Positions 4,926 to 13,812 are shown, numbered from the stretch's first letter. The stretch is DNA of 64,000 nucleotides from Vicinamibacterales bacterium (GCA_025456345.1 JALOKU010000008.1:609-64608), one strand, 5' to 3'. Numbers and translations: made by a program. Notes: generated from the letters alone by a model not told the origin.

Positions 4926-5919
4926 GGTGAGGCACCCCGGGGCCGCGAACGCGCGACGGCAGATACTAGCGCCCGGCCCCACCCCTGTCAAACGGCCCGG
5001 CGGCGAATCCGGCCGCCAGGCCGATGATGACGCGGCGCGGCGGGAGTTCGACCAGTACCTCGACCACCTGCGCGTGGAGCGGCGCCTCGCCAGCAATACG
5101 GTGGACAGCTACGCCCGCGACCTCGGGAGCCTGGCCGCGTTCGCGCGGCAGGCCGCCTGCCCGATCGGGGCCCTCACGCGGCCGCAGCTCGAGGCGTTCG
5201 TGCGGCAGCTGATCGCCGGCGGCCTGGCCCCGCGCTCGGCGGCCCGCGCCGTGGCGAGCACGCGGGGCTTCTACCGGTTCCTCGTGCGCGAGGGCCGCCT
5301 CTCGGCCAGTCCGGCCGAGGACCTGCACGGCGGCCGCCCGTGGCCCGCGCTTCCGCGGTACCTCACGCCCGACGAGGTCGATCGGCTCATCGAACAGCCC
5401 GACCCCGCCACGCCGCTCGGCCAGCGCGATCGGACCATGCTCGAGGTCCTGTACGCCACCGGCCTGCGCGTCTCGGAGCTGGTGGCGATCAGGGCCGCCG
5501 ACATGAACCTGTCGGCCGGGTACCTGACGAGCACGGGCAAGGGAGACAAGCAGCGCCTCGTGCCGCTCGGCGACCGCGCGGTGGACGCCGTCCGCCGGTA
5601 CCAGCAGCAGGCCCGGCCCGAACTGGCCCGGCCGGGTTCGCCGCCGCGGCTGTTTCTCAACGGCAGGGGAGGCGCCCTGAGCCGCGTCGGGTTCTGGAAG
5701 ATCCTGAAAGGCTATGTCCGAAAGGCGGGGCTGCGCGCGGACGTGAGCCCCCACGTGCTGCGGCACTCGTTCGCCACGCATCTGCTCGAGCGCGGCGCCG
5801 ACCTCAGGGCCATCCAGATGATGCTGGGGCACGCGGACCTGTCCACCACGCAGATCTACACCCACGTCCTCGAAACCCGCATGCGGGCCATCTACGACCA
5901 GTTCCACCCGCGCGAGTAG
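4924..5919 (+). CDS. xerD: Site-specific tyrosine recombinase XerD (start uncertain)
   Basis: ERRLASNTVDSYARDL N-terminal domain, LYATGLRVSEL, GKGDKQRLVP, SPHVLRHSFATHLL, LGHADLSTTQIYTHV, C-terminal FHPR. The only in-frame ATG/GTG before the conserved first helix are at 4924 and 4927. Confidence 0.9.
   Translation: MVRHPGAANARRQILAPGPTPVKRPGGESGRQADDDAARREFDQYLDHLRVERRLASNTVDSYARDLGSLAAFARQAACPIGALTRPQLEAFVRQLIAGGLAPRSAARAVASTRGFYRFLVREGRLSASPAEDLHGGRPWPALPRYLTPDEVDRLIEQPDPATPLGQRDRTMLEVLYATGLRVSELVAIRAADMNLSAGYLTSTGKGDKQRLVPLGDRAVDAVRRYQQQARPELARPGSPPRLFLNGRGGALSRVGFWKILKGYVRKAGLRADVSPHVLRHSFATHLLERGADLRAIQMMLGHADLSTTQIYTHVLETRMRAIYDQFHPRE
4963..4991 (-). promoter_or_regulatory. Sigma70-type promoter for murQ
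   Basis: Minus strand TTGACA-17 bp-TAGTAT upstream of the murQ start. Confidence 0.6.
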
Positions 5920-7647: not shown

Positions 7648-10005
7648 TCACGTCCGGACGGCGAGCAGGAGATAGGCCGCCGACACCGCGAAGAGGATGT
7701 TCGGCGCCCACGCCGCCAGCATCGGGTGAATCACGCCGCTCGCGCCGATGGCCCCGAACACGCTCAGCGTAACCCAGTACACGAGCGCCAGCACGATGCC
7801 CAGGCCGATCCCGTACATCGCGCCGCGCCGGCCTGTCGTCACCGCGAAGGGCAGCGCGATGAGCGTCATGATGAGGGTGACCCACGGGAACGACACCTTG
7901 CGGTGCAGCTCCACCTCGTACTCGGTCACGTTGATGCCGCTGGCCCGCAGTTCAACGATGTAGCGCTTCAGCTGCGCGTAGGTCATCCGCCCGGCGGGTG
8001 TCTGCTCGGTCATGAAATACTGCGGCGGCTCGAGAAACAGGTCCGCGCGCTCGACCGGCCGGTAGGCGCGCTGCTCGACCTGGCGGTCGAACTCCCGCAC
8101 CCAGCCGTCGCGCGCCTGCCAGACCACCGTCGGCTCGAAGCCGGTGGCCTCACCGGTGAAGGCCGCCGACTTGTAGAACGCCCGGCTCTGCAGGCGCCCC
8201 GCCCTGGGGGCGAAGCGGAACACGGAGAACTCCATCAGTTCGGTGCGCTTCGGGTCGAAGAACACGTAGTGGTAGATGTCGCCCTTGCGCCCGAGGATCC
8301 AGCGCCGGTCGAGCAGGTCCACCGTTCTGGGCGACCCGCCCCGGATGACGTGCTTGAGTTCCTCCGCGCGCCGGTTCGAGTGCGCCAGCACGTTCTCCTC
8401 GAACAGGAACAGGACCCCCCCGGCCACGACGGCGAACGCGAGCAGCGGCGCCGCCGCGCGGTAGAGCGAGATGCCGCAGGCCCGCATCACGATGAGCTCG
8501 CTTGTCCGCGTCAGGATGCCCATCGTCACCAGGCCGCCGATGAGCACCGACAGCGGAATGCACCAGTAGATGAACTGGGGCGTCTGGTACCACAGGTAGG
8601 TGAACAGCATCCCGGCCGTCGTCGTGCCCTTGAAGAGCTTGTCCGACAGGTCGATGAACGTCGAAATCTGGAAAATGCCGACCAGCGCCGCGAAGGTGAG
8701 CCCGAACACGCGAAGGTACATCTTGCCGATATACACATCCAGCACGTTGGCCCGCAGCTGCCACGCCCGCGGCCACCGGTTCCCGGCCTCCGCCGCGCGC
8801 CGCCTGGCGCCGCGCCCTGCCGCCACGCGCCAGGCCCCGAGCCGCGGCCACGCGCGCTCCAGCCGCGCGCGGGCGCCGCCGATCCAGGAAAGCCACCGCG
8901 ACTCCCGGATGCCGTGGCGCAGCAGCAGCGCGACGCCCAGGCCGCCAAGGAGGATGTTGGGAATCCACGTGGCCAGCCACGGCGGCACCCAGGCGCCCTT
9001 GGCCGCCGACTGGGCGTTCATCAGGATGAAGTAGTACACGTAGATGACGACGATGCCCTTGACGAAGCTCGCGAACTTGGCGTCGCGGCGGTTCGTAAGA
9101 CCGAACACCGCCCCGAGCACCGAGAACACCAGACAGGCCGCGGGAATCGAGAACTTCTTCTGGATCTCCATCACGGGGTTGTGCGTGGAGATCCCCTGTT
9201 GCCTGAGGTTGGCGATGAGGTTCCGCAGCTCGGCGATTGACATCTCGCGGTCGCCCTTGGCGGGGCCGCTCCGGGGGAACACCGTCTCAGGGTCCAGGCT
9301 CAGCACCAGCTGCTGGAACCGGGCCACGCTGTAGTCCTGCGGCGCGTCGGCCTTGCTCGTGTGCTGCGTGCCGTCCTCGAGCACGAGTTCGACCGTCCGG
9401 CGCGCGCGGTCGAGCACCATGTGCCCCTTGTCGGCCAGGTAGACGACCGGATTGTGCGGGTCGGTCGAATCGGCCAGGAACACATCCCGCCACAGCCCGC
9501 CGCCAGGGGGCACGTCGCGGACCAGCAGGACGCGGTTCGGAAAGTGGTCGAAGAACACCCGCGGCTTGATCTCGCCTTCGACCAGCTGGGCGACGACGCG
9601 GTAGCGGATCTCGCGGGCGGTCTGGTTCGCATCGGGAACCGCCCAGATGTACACGTACAGCGTCGCCGCGGTGGCGACGATGCCGAGGGCCATCACCGGC
9701 CTGACAATCCGGCCAATCCCGACGCCGCAGGCCTGCAGGGCGACCCATTCGAAATCGCTCGAGAGGCGCCCGAGTCCGACCAGCAGCCCCACGAGCAGCG
9801 CCATCGGGATGGTGACGGCGAGCGCCTGGGGAACCAGGGTCAGCATGAGGGCGAGCACCGTCGAGGCCGGCGCGCCCTTGGAAATCAGCGGCTCCGCCAG
9901 TTCCATGAGGAACGGCAGGATCAGCATGAACGTGAAGACCAGGAGCGCCATCAGCAGCGGCGGGATCACGGTTCGGATGACGTAGCGGTCGAGGACTCCA
10001 AACAT
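7648..10005 (-). CDS. lptF: Fused LptF-LptG LPS export permease
   Basis: Two tandem YjgP/YjgQ-type halves, starting LDRYV and LDVYI, with RLSSDFEWVALQACG and LTRTSELIVMRACG, each ending in W.PNI. Start at ATG 10005. Confidence 0.9.
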   Translation of the reverse strand: MFGVLDRYVIRTVIPPLLMALLVFTFMLILPFLMELAEPLISKGAPASTVLALMLTLVPQALAVTIPMALLVGLLVGLGRLSSDFEWVALQACGVGIGRIVRPVMALGIVATAATLYVYIWAVPDANQTAREIRYRVVAQLVEGEIKPRVFFDHFPNRVLLVRDVPPGGGLWRDVFLADSTDPHNPVVYLADKGHMVLDRARRTVELVLEDGTQHTSKADAPQDYSVARFQQLVLSLDPETVFPRSGPAKGDREMSIAELRNLIANLRQQGISTHNPVMEIQKKFSIPAACLVFSVLGAVFGLTNRRDAKFASFVKGIVVIYVYYFILMNAQSAAKGAWVPPWLATWIPNILLGGLGVALLLRHGIRESRWLSWIGGARARLERAWPRLGAWRVAAGRGARRRAAEAGNRWPRAWQLRANVLDVYIGKMYLRVFGLTFAALVGIFQISTFIDLSDKLFKGTTTAGMLFTYLWYQTPQFIYWCIPLSVLIGGLVTMGILTRTSELIVMRACGISLYRAAAPLLAFAVVAGGVLFLFEENVLAHSNRRAEELKHVIRGGSPRTVDLLDRRWILGRKGDIYHYVFFDPKRTELMEFSVFRFAPRAGRLQSRAFYKSAAFTGEATGFEPTVVWQARDGWVREFDRQVEQRAYRPVERADLFLEPPQYFMTEQTPAGRMTYAQLKRYIVELRASGINVTEYEVELHRKVSFPWVTLIMTLIALPFAVTTGRRGAMYGIGLGIVLALVYWVTLSVFGAIGASGVIHPMLAAWAPNILFAVSAAYLLLAVRT

Positions 10006-10111
10006 ACGCGGCTGCCGACACGATACCACACGCCCGCCAGGGGAACCGCGATCCCGGCCTCGATCGAGCCAACAGTTCATCAACAGGGGGCATTGTGGCT
10101 GCAATGACTCG

Positions 10112-10139
10112 ATGTCTGATAATATATGTTATGTTAACC
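10112..10139 (+). other. dif site (XerC/XerD chromosome dimer resolution site)
   Basis: ATGTCTGATAA-TATATG-TTATGTTAACC: 11-6-11 layout. The right arm matches the E. coli XerD arm TTATGTTAAAT at 9 of 11 positions and the left arm ends in the conserved ATAA. Intergenic and AT-rich in a GC-rich background. Confidence 0.88.
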
Positions 10140-10214
10140 AACCGGCCTGAACTGGGCCTCAGAACACCCGGCCGCTCTCTCGACGTCGTAACCGCGGCTG
10201 GCGGCGGAAAGCCC

Positions 10215-11042
10215 TTAGCGCTGCTGGCGGAGTTCTTCGATGATGGCCTCGAGCGCGCTGATAATCTCTTTGCGCTCGACCTGGCTCTTGGCAAACGACA
10301 GATGCAGCTTGAAGGCTTTCGTCGGCGGGCGGTAGTTGAAGACGTACGCCCGCGGCCTTCCGCGCTGCGGCTTGGCGGCAGCTTCCTTGCGGAGTCTCTC
10401 GCGCGTGGCATTGCCTTCGCGCGCGATCCTTTCGACCATGGCGATCATTTTCTGCGTGTCGCCAAGCCTAACTATCTGTAACAACAGAGACTTAGAGGAA
10501 ATGTCGGCCAGCCGACACAGGTTTTTCACCTCCGCCGGCATCTTGTGGAGCGCCAGGCTCTCGGTGATGGCCGTTCTCGACTTCCCCAGGCGCTTTGCGA
10601 GGTCCTCGTGCGTCAACCCGCCGCGGCTTGCCAGCGCATGCAGGGCATCAGCTTCTTCGAACGCGGTGAGGTCCTTCCGCTGCAGGTTCTCGACGAGCGC
10701 CAGTTCGATCACCTCCGCGTCGTCCACATCGCGAACGACGACCGGGAGCTCCTTCAGACCGACCTGGACCGCCGCCTGGTACCTCCGCTCGCCGGCGATA
10801 ATCTGATACCGGCCGCCGCGTATCCGAACGACGATCGGCTCGATGACACCTTTCTCGGCGATCGACGCCATGAGTTCCGACAGGTCGCCCATGGCCTGGC
10901 GCGGCTGGTCCGGATTCGGGTCGACCTGGTCGATTGCCAGGAGCCGGCCTATCGGCGTCCCGGCCGGGGCTGACAGCGTGGCGACGTAGTGTTCGTCGTG
11001 GCGCATCCGGATTGATTCTGGCAAGCCAGAACGCTTAGGCAC
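10215..11042 (-). CDS. parB: ParB/Spo0J family partition protein (divergent DNA-binding region)
   Basis: PNPDQPR, GVIEPIVVR, IIAGERRYQAA, ALVENLQRKDL and HTH LTHEDLAKRLGKSRTAITESL. Start set at GTG 11042, overlapping the end of parA. Confidence 0.9.
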   Translation of the reverse strand: MPKRSGLPESIRMRHDEHYVATLSAPAGTPIGRLLAIDQVDPNPDQPRQAMGDLSELMASIAEKGVIEPIVVRIRGGRYQIIAGERRYQAAVQVGLKELPVVVRDVDDAEVIELALVENLQRKDLTAFEEADALHALASRGGLTHEDLAKRLGKSRTAITESLALHKMPAEVKNLCRLADISSKSLLLQIVRLGDTQKMIAMVERIAREGNATRERLRKEAAAKPQRGRPRAYVFNYRPPTKAFKLHLSFAKSQVERKEIISALEAIIEELRQQR

Positions 11043-11790
11043 GGTCGATGACCTCCTCGCAAAGCCGGTAGTACTCGGTCGCCCCTGACGAGTCGGGCGC
11101 AAAGGTAAAAATCGGCTCCTTGTACGCGGGGCTCTCTTCCAGCCTCACGCTCTTGCTGATCACGGTGGCGAACACCAGTTCTCCGAAGACGGCCCGGATC
11201 TGGTTCCGGATATCTCTTGCGATGGCCGTGCGCCGGTCGTGCATCGTAATCAGCACGCCGAGCAGCCTCAGGTCAGGGTTGGCCCTGGCCCTGACCTTCT
11301 CCACGGTCTCCAGGAGGTCGTCGGTCCCCTCGAGCGCGAAATACGACGATTGGATCGGCACGAGGAGATGGCTCGACGCCACGAGGGCATTCGCCGTCAA
11401 CAGGCCGAGCGTCGGGGGGCAGTCGATCACGATGAACTCGTAGTCCTCGCGAACCGGGTCGAGCCGGTCCTTCAGCCGGAAGTGGGAGTCGATCTCCCCC
11501 ACCAGTTTCGCCTCGAGCTTTGCCAGCGCGATTCTGGCCGGTGCCACGAGCAGGTTCTTCACGTTCGACTCGACGATCACGTCCGCCAGCGAGCACTGAG
11601 CATCCGACAGGACGTCGTACAGGCTGCGCTCGACGCGTCGGATGTCGAGGTACGACATCGAGCTGTTCGACTGCGGGTCCATGTCGATCAGCAGCGTACG
11701 CCTGCCGCGCATGGCAAGCGCCGCAGCCAGGTTGATGGCGGTGGTCGTCTTACCGACCCCACCTTTCTGGTTGGCGATTGAAACAATCAT
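11035..11790 (-). CDS. parA: ParA/Soj family ATPase
   Basis: NQKGGVGKTT deviant Walker A, DMDPQ, IDCPPTLG, FALEG. Confidence 0.93.
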   Translation of the reverse strand: MIVSIANQKGGVGKTTTAINLAAALAMRGRRTLLIDMDPQSNSSMSYLDIRRVERSLYDVLSDAQCSLADVIVESNVKNLLVAPARIALAKLEAKLVGEIDSHFRLKDRLDPVREDYEFIVIDCPPTLGLLTANALVASSHLLVPIQSSYFALEGTDDLLETVEKVRARANPDLRLLGVLITMHDRRTAIARDIRNQIRAVFGELVFATVISKSVRLEESPAYKEPIFTFAPDSSGATEYYRLCEEVIDRA

Positions 11791-11817
11791 GAAGACTGGC
11801 CTGTGGACGGCGGGGCT

Positions 11818-11847
11818 ATTCTAGGTGCCGCCAGGAACGGGTGTCAA
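11818..11847 (-). promoter_or_regulatory. Sigma70-type promoter for parAB
   Basis: Minus strand TTGACA-18 bp-TAGAAT, 27 nt before the parA ATG. Confidence 0.75.
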
Positions 11848-11889: not shown

Positions 11890-12375
11890 CTACATCTTGT
11901 ACTTCCCCAGCTCCTCCGGATCGAGGCTCTCGAGCCACTTCTGCAGGCGGTCGGCGCTGGCGGGCTCCGGCGCAAGGTCGACCGTCTTCGCGTTGTCGAT
12001 GACGTGCTCTTCCACGAAAATCGGCGCCTGGGTCCGCAGCGCCAGGGCCAGCGCGTCGCTCGGCCGTGCGTCGACGGCGACCAGCTCCTGTCCGACGCGC
12101 AGGTAGATCAACGCGTAGAACGTCGTCTCCCTCAGATCCGACACGACGATCTTCTCGACGTTTCCGTTGAGATCGCGGATGACGTTCCGCAGCAGGTCGT
12201 GCGTCATCGGCCTCGGCGTGGCGATGTTCTCGATCTGCAGCGCGATGGCGTTCGCCTCGAAGATGCCGACCCAGATGGGAAGGACCCGCTCGCCTTCCTT
12301 GTCGCGAAGAATGACGATGGGCATGTTGGTGACCGGGTCGACCATCAGGCCCTTGATGACCATTTCGCTCTGCAT
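11890..12375 (-). CDS. Bifunctional nuclease family protein (DUF151)
   Basis: LPIWVGIFEA, RPMTHDL and DARPSDALALA motifs; GAGGAG RBS before ATG 12375. Confidence 0.9.
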   Translation of the reverse strand: MQSEMVIKGLMVDPVTNMPIVILRDKEGERVLPIWVGIFEANAIALQIENIATPRPMTHDLLRNVIRDLNGNVEKIVVSDLRETTFYALIYLRVGQELVAVDARPSDALALALRTQAPIFVEEHVIDNAKTVDLAPEPASADRLQKWLESLDPEELGKYKM

Positions 12376-12459
12376 CGTGCTCCTCGCCTGCATCCGGACT
12401 GCGCCATCGTGACGCGTGCCGTCGCCCTTGGCATTGGCCCTCCTGGCAGGAGGACGCGT

Positions 12460-13812
12460 TTACAAAGTAGGGCCAGGTCGGGGCGCTGTCAAGGACCTGG
12501 GCCGGCCCCAGAGGCTGTGGGCCCCGGCCCGCTCGATCTCGACCATGGCGAAGGACCCCAACTCCCGCTGGTTGCCGGGAAAGTTCACGACGGTGTTGCC
12601 CGTCGTGCGCCCCGAAAGCTCCGTCTCCCGCCGGCGGCTGACACTGTCGATCAGCACTTCCACGGTCGACCCGACGGCCTCCTCGTGCAGCCTCGTCTGG
12701 ATGCCCTTCTGCAGATCCTGCAGCGCCGCCAATCGCCGGTCCTTCTCCCCTTCAGGAACATCGTCCGGAAGGCGCTTCGCCGCCAGAGTTCCGGGCCTCT
12801 CGGAGTACTTGAAGGAGAACATCGAATGGAACCCGACGGCTTCCACCAGGCTCAGCGTGTCGGCAAAATCCTCGTCGGCCTCGCCGGGAAACCCCACGAT
12901 CATGTCCGTTGACAGTTGGATGCCAGCCACGCCTGCCTTCACGGCGCGCACCAGTTCCAGGTATTCGTCCCGGGTATGGCGCCGCCTCATCGCCGAGAGG
13001 ACTCGAGTCGAGCCCGACTGGACCGGCAGGTGGAGGTGCTTGCACACGTGCGGCAGTTCCCTCATCGCGTCGATGAGCCTGGCGGTCACGTGCCTGGGAT
13101 GCGGGCTGGCGAACCTCACTCTCCGGATGCCCGGGATCGCATCCACGGCCGCGAGCAGGTCCGCGAAGTCGCAACCGGGGTCGTCTGGCGCCTGGTAGTG
13201 GTTGACGATCTGCCCGAGCAGGTGGATTTCGGTCCGACCGCTTTGAACCGCCTCCTGGACCTCTTCCAGGATCTCGCCCTTCGGACGCATCCGCTCATGA
13301 CCGCGGGTGTGCGGGACCACGCAGAAGGCGCAGTAGTCGTTGCAGCCTTCGATGATGGTCACATAGGCCTTCACCGGGTCCATCCGGCGCGCCATCCCGA
13401 GGGGGAACGACACGTCGTCGTAGGGGTTGATGTCGATCTGCCTCGAGCGCGTCCGAAGGGCCTCGTCGACGAGCAGCGGAAGCCTCCGCTCGGCCATTGT
13501 GCCGACGACTACGTCCACTCCCCTGGCCCGGCGGAACATCGCCGCGCCGTCCTGCTGCGCCAGGCACCCGGCCACGGCGATCAGCGGGGCCTGGCCGCCA
13601 GGCCCCGCCTCGCTTCGGATTTCACCGATGCGGCTGAGCACCTTGTCGTCGGCCTTCTCGCGGACCGTGCAGGTATTGAGCACAACGACGTCGGCGTCGG
13701 CGGGCTCCAACGCAGGCTCGTAGCCGGCCGCCTCGAGCAGGCCTGCCATGCGCTCGGAATCGTGGAAGTTCATCTGGCAGCCGAACGTCTCGATGAGGTA
13801 TCGCTTGGCCAT
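12460..13812 (-). CDS. miaB: tRNA-2-methylthio-N6-dimethylallyladenosine synthase
   Basis: TFGCQMNFHDSE, NTCTVRE, radical SAM motif CNDYCAFC, HLPVQSGS, C-terminal TRAM domain. Confidence 0.95.
   Translation of the reverse strand: MAKRYLIETFGCQMNFHDSERMAGLLEAAGYEPALEPADADVVVLNTCTVREKADDKVLSRIGEIRSEAGPGGQAPLIAVAGCLAQQDGAAMFRRARGVDVVVGTMAERRLPLLVDEALRTRSRQIDINPYDDVSFPLGMARRMDPVKAYVTIIEGCNDYCAFCVVPHTRGHERMRPKGEILEEVQEAVQSGRTEIHLLGQIVNHYQAPDDPGCDFADLLAAVDAIPGIRRVRFASPHPRHVTARLIDAMRELPHVCKHLHLPVQSGSTRVLSAMRRRHTRDEYLELVRAVKAGVAGIQLSTDMIVGFPGEADEDFADTLSLVEAVGFHSMFSFKYSERPGTLAAKRLPDDVPEGEKDRRLAALQDLQKGIQTRLHEEAVGSTVEVLIDSVSRRRETELSGRTTGNTVVNFPGNQRELGSFAMVEIERAGAHSLWGRPRSLTAPRPGPTL

Follow-up and report, generated by a model that had tools for sequence, protein, structure and literature searches.

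We found that a parA-parB operon and a 16-bp palindrome located beside the dif site in the 64,000-nucleotide stretch of DNA analyzed here (the window) likely form a second partition system. The window comes from contig C62, which belongs to an assembly of 253 contigs (5.07 Mb, 91% complete), and the name Acidobacteriota used here for its phylum is the one attached to the homologues of the assembly's ParB proteins in a homologue search. The features on which the argument draws are as follows, with positions counted from the first letter of the window.

5050-5919, plus strand: xerD, matching TIGR02225 over its cutoff; start approximate.
7648-10005, minus strand: lptF-lptG fusion, a dif neighbor kept with or without parAB2.
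10066-10086, plus strand: DnaA-box-like repeats in tandem, recurring every 11 bp, on the XerC side of dif.
10112-10139, plus strand: dif (XerC arm, 6 bp, XerD arm), with the XerD arm toward the parB2 stop.
10215-11042, minus strand: parB2, with N terminus GLPxxxxMRHDxH[YF]V, ParB-N with GERR and ENLQR, HTH, and a beta-beta-alpha C-terminal domain.
10502-10517, no strand: candidate parS2, TGTCGGC-CA-GCCGACA, inside parB2 (codons C-R-L-A-D-I), 363 bp from dif.
11035-11790, minus strand: parA2, a Soj-like ATPase with a deviant Walker A motif and no N-terminal HTH, overlapping the parB2 start.
11818-11847, minus strand: candidate sigma70-type promoter of parA2-parB2, TTGACA-18-TAGAAT.
11890-13812, minus strand: miaB and a gene with a bifunctional-nuclease domain, conserved upstream neighbors of parAB2.

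The dif site reads ATGTCTGATAA-TATATG-TTATGTTAACC over 28 bp, and its arms are labeled XerC and XerD on our assumption that they correspond to those of the E. coli site. The original prediction of an 11-6-11 dif at this position held up when the whole 5.07-Mb assembly was scanned, since 10112-10139 was the sole match to the dif pattern with up to two mismatches and no better dif was found elsewhere; relatives mostly have a single dif copy per genome. As had been described, the parB2 stop lies at 10215, leaving 75 bp between the end of the gene and dif, and xerD is found about 4 kb away (its end is ∼4.2 kb from dif, and the protein scores above the NCBIfam cutoff). A second Xer gene is located on contig C227. 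In each of the four near-complete genomes examined for ftsK (G004, G031, G144, and G160), this gene is ∼50 to 185 kb away from dif. The lptF and lptG genes, which are fused in the window, are immediate or close neighbors of dif whether or not a lineage has parAB2 (the window; L272 to L285), and the dif-lptFG linkage is old. Between parB2 and dif of another locus (L022), we observed a duplicated unit with two further partial XerD-arm-like repeats (TATGTTATGTTAGC). The DnaA-box-like repeats sit 25 to 45 bp off the XerC arm of dif. With a box pattern fitted after these repeats had been seen, a DnaA-like box was found within 110 bp of dif on the XerC side in 12 of 19 loci of the family, 3 of 12 further loci of the order, and 7 of 57 other loci, versus 1.2% of background tiles. 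Similar boxes also flank dnaA on contig C60.

The same contig, C60, carries the canonical partition locus of this genome, mnmE-gidA-gidB-parS-parA-parB, with dnaA and dnaN. This is the second parAB near gidAB that the original prediction had proposed to look for, and because it is separate from the window and has its own parS, the pair in the window represents a second system, whose products we refer to as ParA2 and ParB2. They are 42% and 47% identical, respectively, to the origin copies.

The near-consensus promoter from which parA and parB were said to be transcribed toward dif is present as TTGACA-18-TAGAAT at 11847-11818, matching the consensus at 11 of 12 positions (0.3 expected from shuffles). 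In nearly all loci, parA2 overlaps or adjoins parB2, and ParA2 is conserved more strongly than ParB2. Its deviant Walker A motif (KGGVGKTT, residues 9 to 16) and its DPQ motif are invariant or nearly so, the mean column identity over 60 sequences is 68%, and seven differences from other ParAs are fixed, with the catalytic motifs intact. In ParB2, the CTP-pocket motifs (G84-E85-R86-R87, E118-N119, and R122) were invariant in 61 sequences. The predicted fold (pLDDT 88) comprises ParB-N, HTH, and a small beta-beta-alpha domain; Pfam matches were to the ParB family only, and the Pfam profile search detected no MatP or ZapT domain in the protein. At its N terminus, ParB2 carries the conserved, basic peptide GLPxxxxMRHDxH[YF]V in the place of LGRGL in canonical ParB. 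The N-terminal peptide of ParB is described as the contact with ParA in excerpts of PMC7333895 and PMC11229316. When a ParA2 dimer, ATP, and ParB2 residues 1 to 34 were modeled as a complex, the score was 0.29 versus a mark of 0.32.

The surface with which ParB2 would read DNA is altered. The GERRxxA motif and a post-HTH segment unlike the canonical one had both been claimed, and both are there, the segment being ISSKSLLLQIVR; its change matches the different binding site. We then compared ParB2 with the canonical parS-reading residues at the specificity positions named in PMC7383237, which showed that R173 is kept, while the other positions have changed to Q162H, N178E (100%), G201K/R, and R204L (in ParB2 numbering, R156 corresponds to R173 and K/R184 to G201). 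According to excerpts of this paper, R173 pairs with base G1 of the site and a basic residue 201 with C6. Both G1 and C6 are present in parS2, and under the rules of PMC7383237, R173 and the basic residue 201 of ParB2 would fit them.

The palindrome at 10502-10517 did not form part of the original prediction. Among 250 candidate 16-bp palindromes, TGTCGGC-NN-GCCGACA ranked first, being found in 77 of 90 loci with up to two mismatches, and the runner-up (29 of 90 loci) was the dif core. An exact copy is present in 127 of 170 ParB2 genomes (and missing in the other 43) versus 4 of 131 genomes without a ParB2 match, counts to which we give no p-value weight, since related genomes are not independent; three of these four "ParB2-negative" genomes do have ParB2 by profile. 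The consensus parS, TGTTTCAC-GTGAAACA, was found in none of 122 ParB2 loci versus 27 of 48 other ParB loci. We also considered parS2 as a mere by-product of the conserved peptide that it encodes. In the 68 of 120 parB2 genes encoding CRxADI, the Cys codon is TGT in 99%, compared with 20% in the rest of these genes, and the Arg codon is CGG in 97%, compared with 26%. In 23 of 60 phylum loci, parS2 is not in parB2 but in the spacer immediately before parA2 or after parB2. This codon bias and the intergenic copies rule out the by-product explanation.

Most ParB2 genomes hold a single parS2 copy; excerpts of PMC4368675 state that in P. aeruginosa one parS site can be enough for segregation. Where multiple copies exist (four to eight per genome in G160, G202, G151, and G266), they gather at the terminus, with five exact copies within 130 kb in G160 and four within 53 kb in G202. 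A matS-like layout was seen in G266, where eight sites with up to one mismatch are spread over a 760-kb terminal region (C1:759-1521 kb) and ParB2 is divergent. In G341, two parS2 copies flank dif, and the parAB2 genes are on a different contig. The distance between parS2 and dif is at most 2.5 kb in 79 of the 81 loci holding both (median, 540 bp). The present assembly contains a second exact match, at C147:585 within an apparent ABC-transporter coding sequence, which we rejected as a real second site because two exact matches are within chance (60 permuted arms gave a mean of 0.7 and a maximum of 5). Co-occurrence, co-loss, and codon constraint together tie parS2 to parAB2 as its presumed cognate palindrome.

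To describe the distribution of the module, we relied on two genome sets. ParB2 is present at full length in 56 of 60 relatives (62 to 93% identity), the four misses being fragmented or incomplete assemblies, and in 170 of 301 phylum genomes (E ≤ 1e-50). Each of the 301 is at least 90% complete; they include the unpublished G082, G196, and (negative) G105, and no single claim rests on these. The adjacency of dif and parB, which the original prediction had put forward as a test, is kept in relatives: dif lies at most 1.3 kb downstream of parB2 in 54 of 57 genomes of the order, a count that was read off by hand and includes this genome, and the remaining three have dif on another contig. The XerD arm faces parB2 in all 28 fetched order loci with dif. 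Across the phylum, we fetched 60 of the 170 ParB2 loci, hand-picked across families, and found dif within 2 kb downstream of parB2 in 41 and within the 7 kb fetched in 43. Among the 19 loci without dif within 2 kb, traced cases have it 6 to 94 kb off or on another contig, and at four such nonadjacent dif loci (L261 to L264) there is no parS2 nearby. We also scanned 1/64 of the species collection and kept 80 loci, of which 16 of the 32 named ParB2 loci had dif within 2 kb downstream versus none of the 48 other ParB loci. These 32 are labeled Acidobacteriota or subgroups thereof, apart from one record without a label, which the tree places within this group.

The neighbors of parAB2 are as syntenic as dif (among 60 loci, nuclease gene in 48, miaB in 43, dif in 41, and lptFG in 31), and the proximity to dif is therefore partly old gene order. 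With this query, about 130 of the 301 genomes have no ParB2. In 13 of 14 dif regions from ParB2-negative genomes, the genes and parS2 are both gone and lptFG or miaB is retained; in the fourteenth, ParB2 is cut at a contig end. With both gone together and the neighbors intact, the loss has affected the module as a whole, and some lineages can therefore do without it.

The proposed location at the terminus is borne out by replicon maps, on which ParB2 lies at 0.45 to 0.50 of the replicon length from dnaA in 10 of 10 closed or main replicons (three lengths rounded). The contig has only 10.7 kb to the left of dif; the switch in GC skew and KOPS polarity that the original prediction called for was examined in closed relatives. 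It is clear in G160, where the cumulative GC skew has its maximum 5 kb away from dif and the ratio of KOPS-like octamers changes from 47:21 to 18:36, and unclear in G031, where the skew turns at a distance of 93 kb from dif and the KOPS polarity is not significant. To the right of dif in the window, six KOPS-like octamers point toward it and one points away. The statement that most genes on this side point toward dif stands for both tRNAs, but the bias is weaker than claimed, with 24 of 43 genes toward dif in a crude, error-prone ORF call. Strand bias was dropped as evidence because the crude gene caller chose shadow frames for several genes.

To gain an idea about the origin of the module, we built the ParB phylogeny that had been asked for, in which, as a quick, midpoint-rooted tree, ParB2 is set apart from the chromosomal ParB group. 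A first quick tree of 147 rows, from which 24 near-duplicate or partial loci were dropped by name and others by length, placed ParB2 on one side, following host families and classes. A profile search of 1.84 billion proteins yielded ParB relatives with a ParB2-type recognition helix but different N termini, and 28 of these, together with four plasmid ParBs, were added to a second tree. In this second tree, again quick and here midpoint-rooted, 20 chromosomal rows including the phylum's ParB1 form one side (support 99), 30 ParB2 rows form another (97), and ParB2 groups with the database relatives and two Nitrosococcus plasmid ParBs (83). A duplication of the phylum's own ParB1 as the source of ParB2 is not supported by the trees.

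The two Nitrosococcus plasmids, pNWAT01 (NC_014316.1) and pNHAL01 (NC_013958.1), carry the palindrome AGTCGGAC-GTCCGACT at the same parB codon, with a second copy 83 to 92 bp downstream of both parB genes. We regard it as a candidate plasmid centromere related to parS2, and its position at the same codon lends independent support to parS2 as the target of ParB2. In the stretches fetched from these plasmids (L447 and L449), the perfect palindrome is located at 2984-2999 and the copy at ∼3400, followed by a tyrosine recombinase gene. We know these units from annotation alone and found no study of them. Raw identity speaks against a plasmid origin, being lower for ParB2 and ParA2 to the plasmid copies (35 to 36% and 36 to 37%) than to the chromosomal ones (47% and 42%). 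Nor was a ParB2 orthologue found among 72,556 plasmids and 50,697 phages (best match, 42%). The 160 loci obtained by scanning metagenome and viral contigs included a single protein with a ParB2-type helix, itself a ParB2. An Atlas search returned only ParB clusters without a protein name, mostly from Acidobacteriota. The parAB2 genes themselves are chromosomal and sit among housekeeping genes. On balance, a plasmid unit was likely captured near dif in an ancestor of the phylum.

By its sequence features, parAB2 is a variant ParABS that differs from the canonical type in site, residues, location, and tree position. The best PDB profile matches of ParB2 are chromosomal ParABS proteins (M. xanthus ParB 7bnk, T. 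thermophilus Spo0J 1vz0, and C. crescentus ParB 6t1f), and the system shares with Soj/Spo0J-parS a Soj-like ParA followed by ParB, the GERR and ENLQR motifs, the HTH, and a 16-bp TGT-initial palindrome in or near the operon. Unlike chromosomal ParABS, it is located at the terminus, additional to a complete origin system, and it has a different site, the changes Q162H, N178E, G201K/R, and R204L, GLP...MRHD for LGRGL, and a position outside the chromosomal tree group. The parAB units of pNWAT01 and pNHAL01 resemble it in the Glu of the recognition helix, the xRTSD...SKSxL segment, and the near-identical palindrome at the same codon with a downstream copy; in contrast to the ParB2 system, they are plasmid-borne, only 35 to 36% identical, and devoid of GLP...MRHD, with no clear dif in the fetched stretch. 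Noc/NBS of Firmicutes is likewise a ParB relative with a new 16-bp target, a basic residue 201, and C6 in its site, and Noc was the top Foldseek match. However, ParB2 scores 159 bits versus the Noc cutoff of 315, keeps R173, and has a ParA partner, and the Noc specificity residues QKKR contrast with R-S-K-K in the ParB2 of the window. In Noc, a peptide binds the membrane, and the NBS sites are kept out of the terminus. The folds of MatP and ZapT are unrelated to that of ParB2. MatP/matS (enterobacteria and Vibrio) and ZapT (Caulobacter) are comparable as DNA-binding factors for the terminus, linked in excerpts of PMC7188993 to late segregation and division. They have many sites and no NTPase motor, whereas ParB2 usually has one site (four to eight in a few genomes) and a ParA partner.

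A further protein of this genome, encoded at C107:4377-5528 (G000; L003 802-1956, minus strand; P0123), is a fusion in which an acidic N terminus and a GLP...MR..H peptide precede a ParB-N that does not have the glutamate of GERR; the remaining part has a histidine-kinase-like fold and, in structural comparison, best matches the kinase domain of DivL. Its peptide is the only occurrence in the genome besides ParB2. Of 121 order genomes, 16 encode the protein at full length, in differing gene surroundings, and it may be an adaptor or cargo of ParA2. It is ParB-N derived, as is PadC of Myxococcus xanthus, described in excerpts of PMC7333895 as an adaptor engaging ParA; unlike PadC, it bears the ParB2 peptide, no longer has the glutamate of GERR, and continues into a histidine-kinase-like fold.

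The explanation that we favor, and consider reasonably probable, is a terminus-positioning ParABS, a domesticated plasmid-type system in which ParB2 clamps would load at parS2 and spread over dif while ParA2 would act as a ratchet. It starts from what is directly observed, i.e., the genes and the site, their joint occurrence and loss, the place opposite the origin, the intact catalytic motifs, and the altered DNA-reading surface, and borrows its functional steps from known ParABS chemistry. ParB2 would bind CTP and form clamps at parS2, which is separated from dif by 363 bp; the clamps would spread from there across dif, and the N-terminal motif of ParB2 would stimulate nucleoid-bound ParA2. 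In low-copy plasmids, a ParA diffusion ratchet centers one focus and moves two apart. In the same way, the ratchet would center a single terminus focus on the nucleoid and separate the two replicated foci, and dif would thereby be brought to the site of FtsK and XerCD action. The distinct site and the distinct N-terminal peptide would prevent cross-talk with the origin system.

Four other explanations were weighed against this one. ParB2 could be a marker of the division site, tagging the terminus while ParA2 relays its position to the FtsZ ring (compare MipZ, or ZapT with MatP) and the DNA is not moved. A search for MinC was positive in 6 of 14 controls and in none of the 301 genomes of the phylum; terminus-to-Z-ring links are known elsewhere (excerpts of PMC7188993), and MipZ is a ParA-family ATPase that uses ParB as a landmark (excerpts of PMC9178275). 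However, genomes without ParB2 also lack MinC, and a complementary ParB2/MinC pattern was therefore rejected. Moreover, ParA2 scores 199 bits with the Soj-like AAA_31 profile, far above the 52 bits with MipZ, and belongs to a parA-parB-site unit, as in plasmid systems. We consider a division marker unlikely.

We consider it quite unlikely that ParB2 organizes the terminus without a motor, its spreading loading or blocking SMC, compacting the terminus, or gating the access of XerCD and FtsK to dif. The short parS2-dif distance (at most 2.5 kb in 79 of 81 loci; median, 540 bp) is in line with such a role, as are the presence of SMC and FtsK (SMC and FtsK-gamma each in 5 of 5 genomes tested), the loading of SMC at parS by ParB (excerpts of PMC7333895), and the spread of parS2 sites over 130 to 760 kb in G160 and G266. 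For an organizer, one would expect numerous sites, but a single one is the rule, and the near-constant company of ParA2, better conserved than ParB2, also argues against it.

Kinship with plasmid parAB-site units that have a tyrosine recombinase gene next to them, equally syntenic neighbors, and clean loss in several lineages could instead point to the relic of a plasmid integrated at dif, with a site that serves self-regulation or plasmid incompatibility and a location kept by gene order only. Such a relic is improbable in our view, given that the ParB2 tree tracks host families and classes with invariant catalytic motifs, that extra sites lie tens of kb from the genes yet only around the terminus and remain at dif when the genes move, and that the 72,556 plasmids and 50,697 phages hold no ParB2 orthologue (best, 42%). 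That ParA2 is mainly a general cargo-positioning ATPase, with the terminus as one cargo or reference point, is very improbable: a second protein (C107:4377-5528) does bear the ParB2-type N-terminal motif on a degenerate ParB-N with a kinase-like fold, and ParA-type cargo systems such as PpfA and McdA are known (excerpts of PMC9178275), but that protein is full length in just 16 of 121 order genomes, where ParB2 is nearly universal.

If the terminus-positioning ParABS is extended to the phylum, a tentative and rather doubtful picture is that most Acidobacteriota have two-centromere chromosomes. The plasmid unit captured at dif would have become an orthogonal ParABS that positions the terminus and, in this phylum devoid of MinC, also fixes the plane of division, and in some lineages the ParA2-activating peptide would have been grafted onto a kinase-like protein riding the same machine.

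A full-text literature search returned no description of a terminus ParB2 system; most subscription papers and supplements were outside its scope, so a mention in a parS survey is possible. Excerpts of PMC3025954 predict dif in three Acidobacteria and do not mention parB, and in excerpts of PMC7333895 and PMC7188993, ParABS is described for the origin region and the terminus is left to FtsK/Xer, MatP, or ZapT. If our favored explanation is true, one chromosome can bear two orthogonal centromeres at opposite ends, which would bear on how the terminus is positioned without MatP and how division is placed without Min. ParB2 and parS2 would be a natural pair with a new specificity, on which the ParB/Noc recognition code can be tested, and the system is a likely example of plasmid machinery recruited to the core cell cycle.
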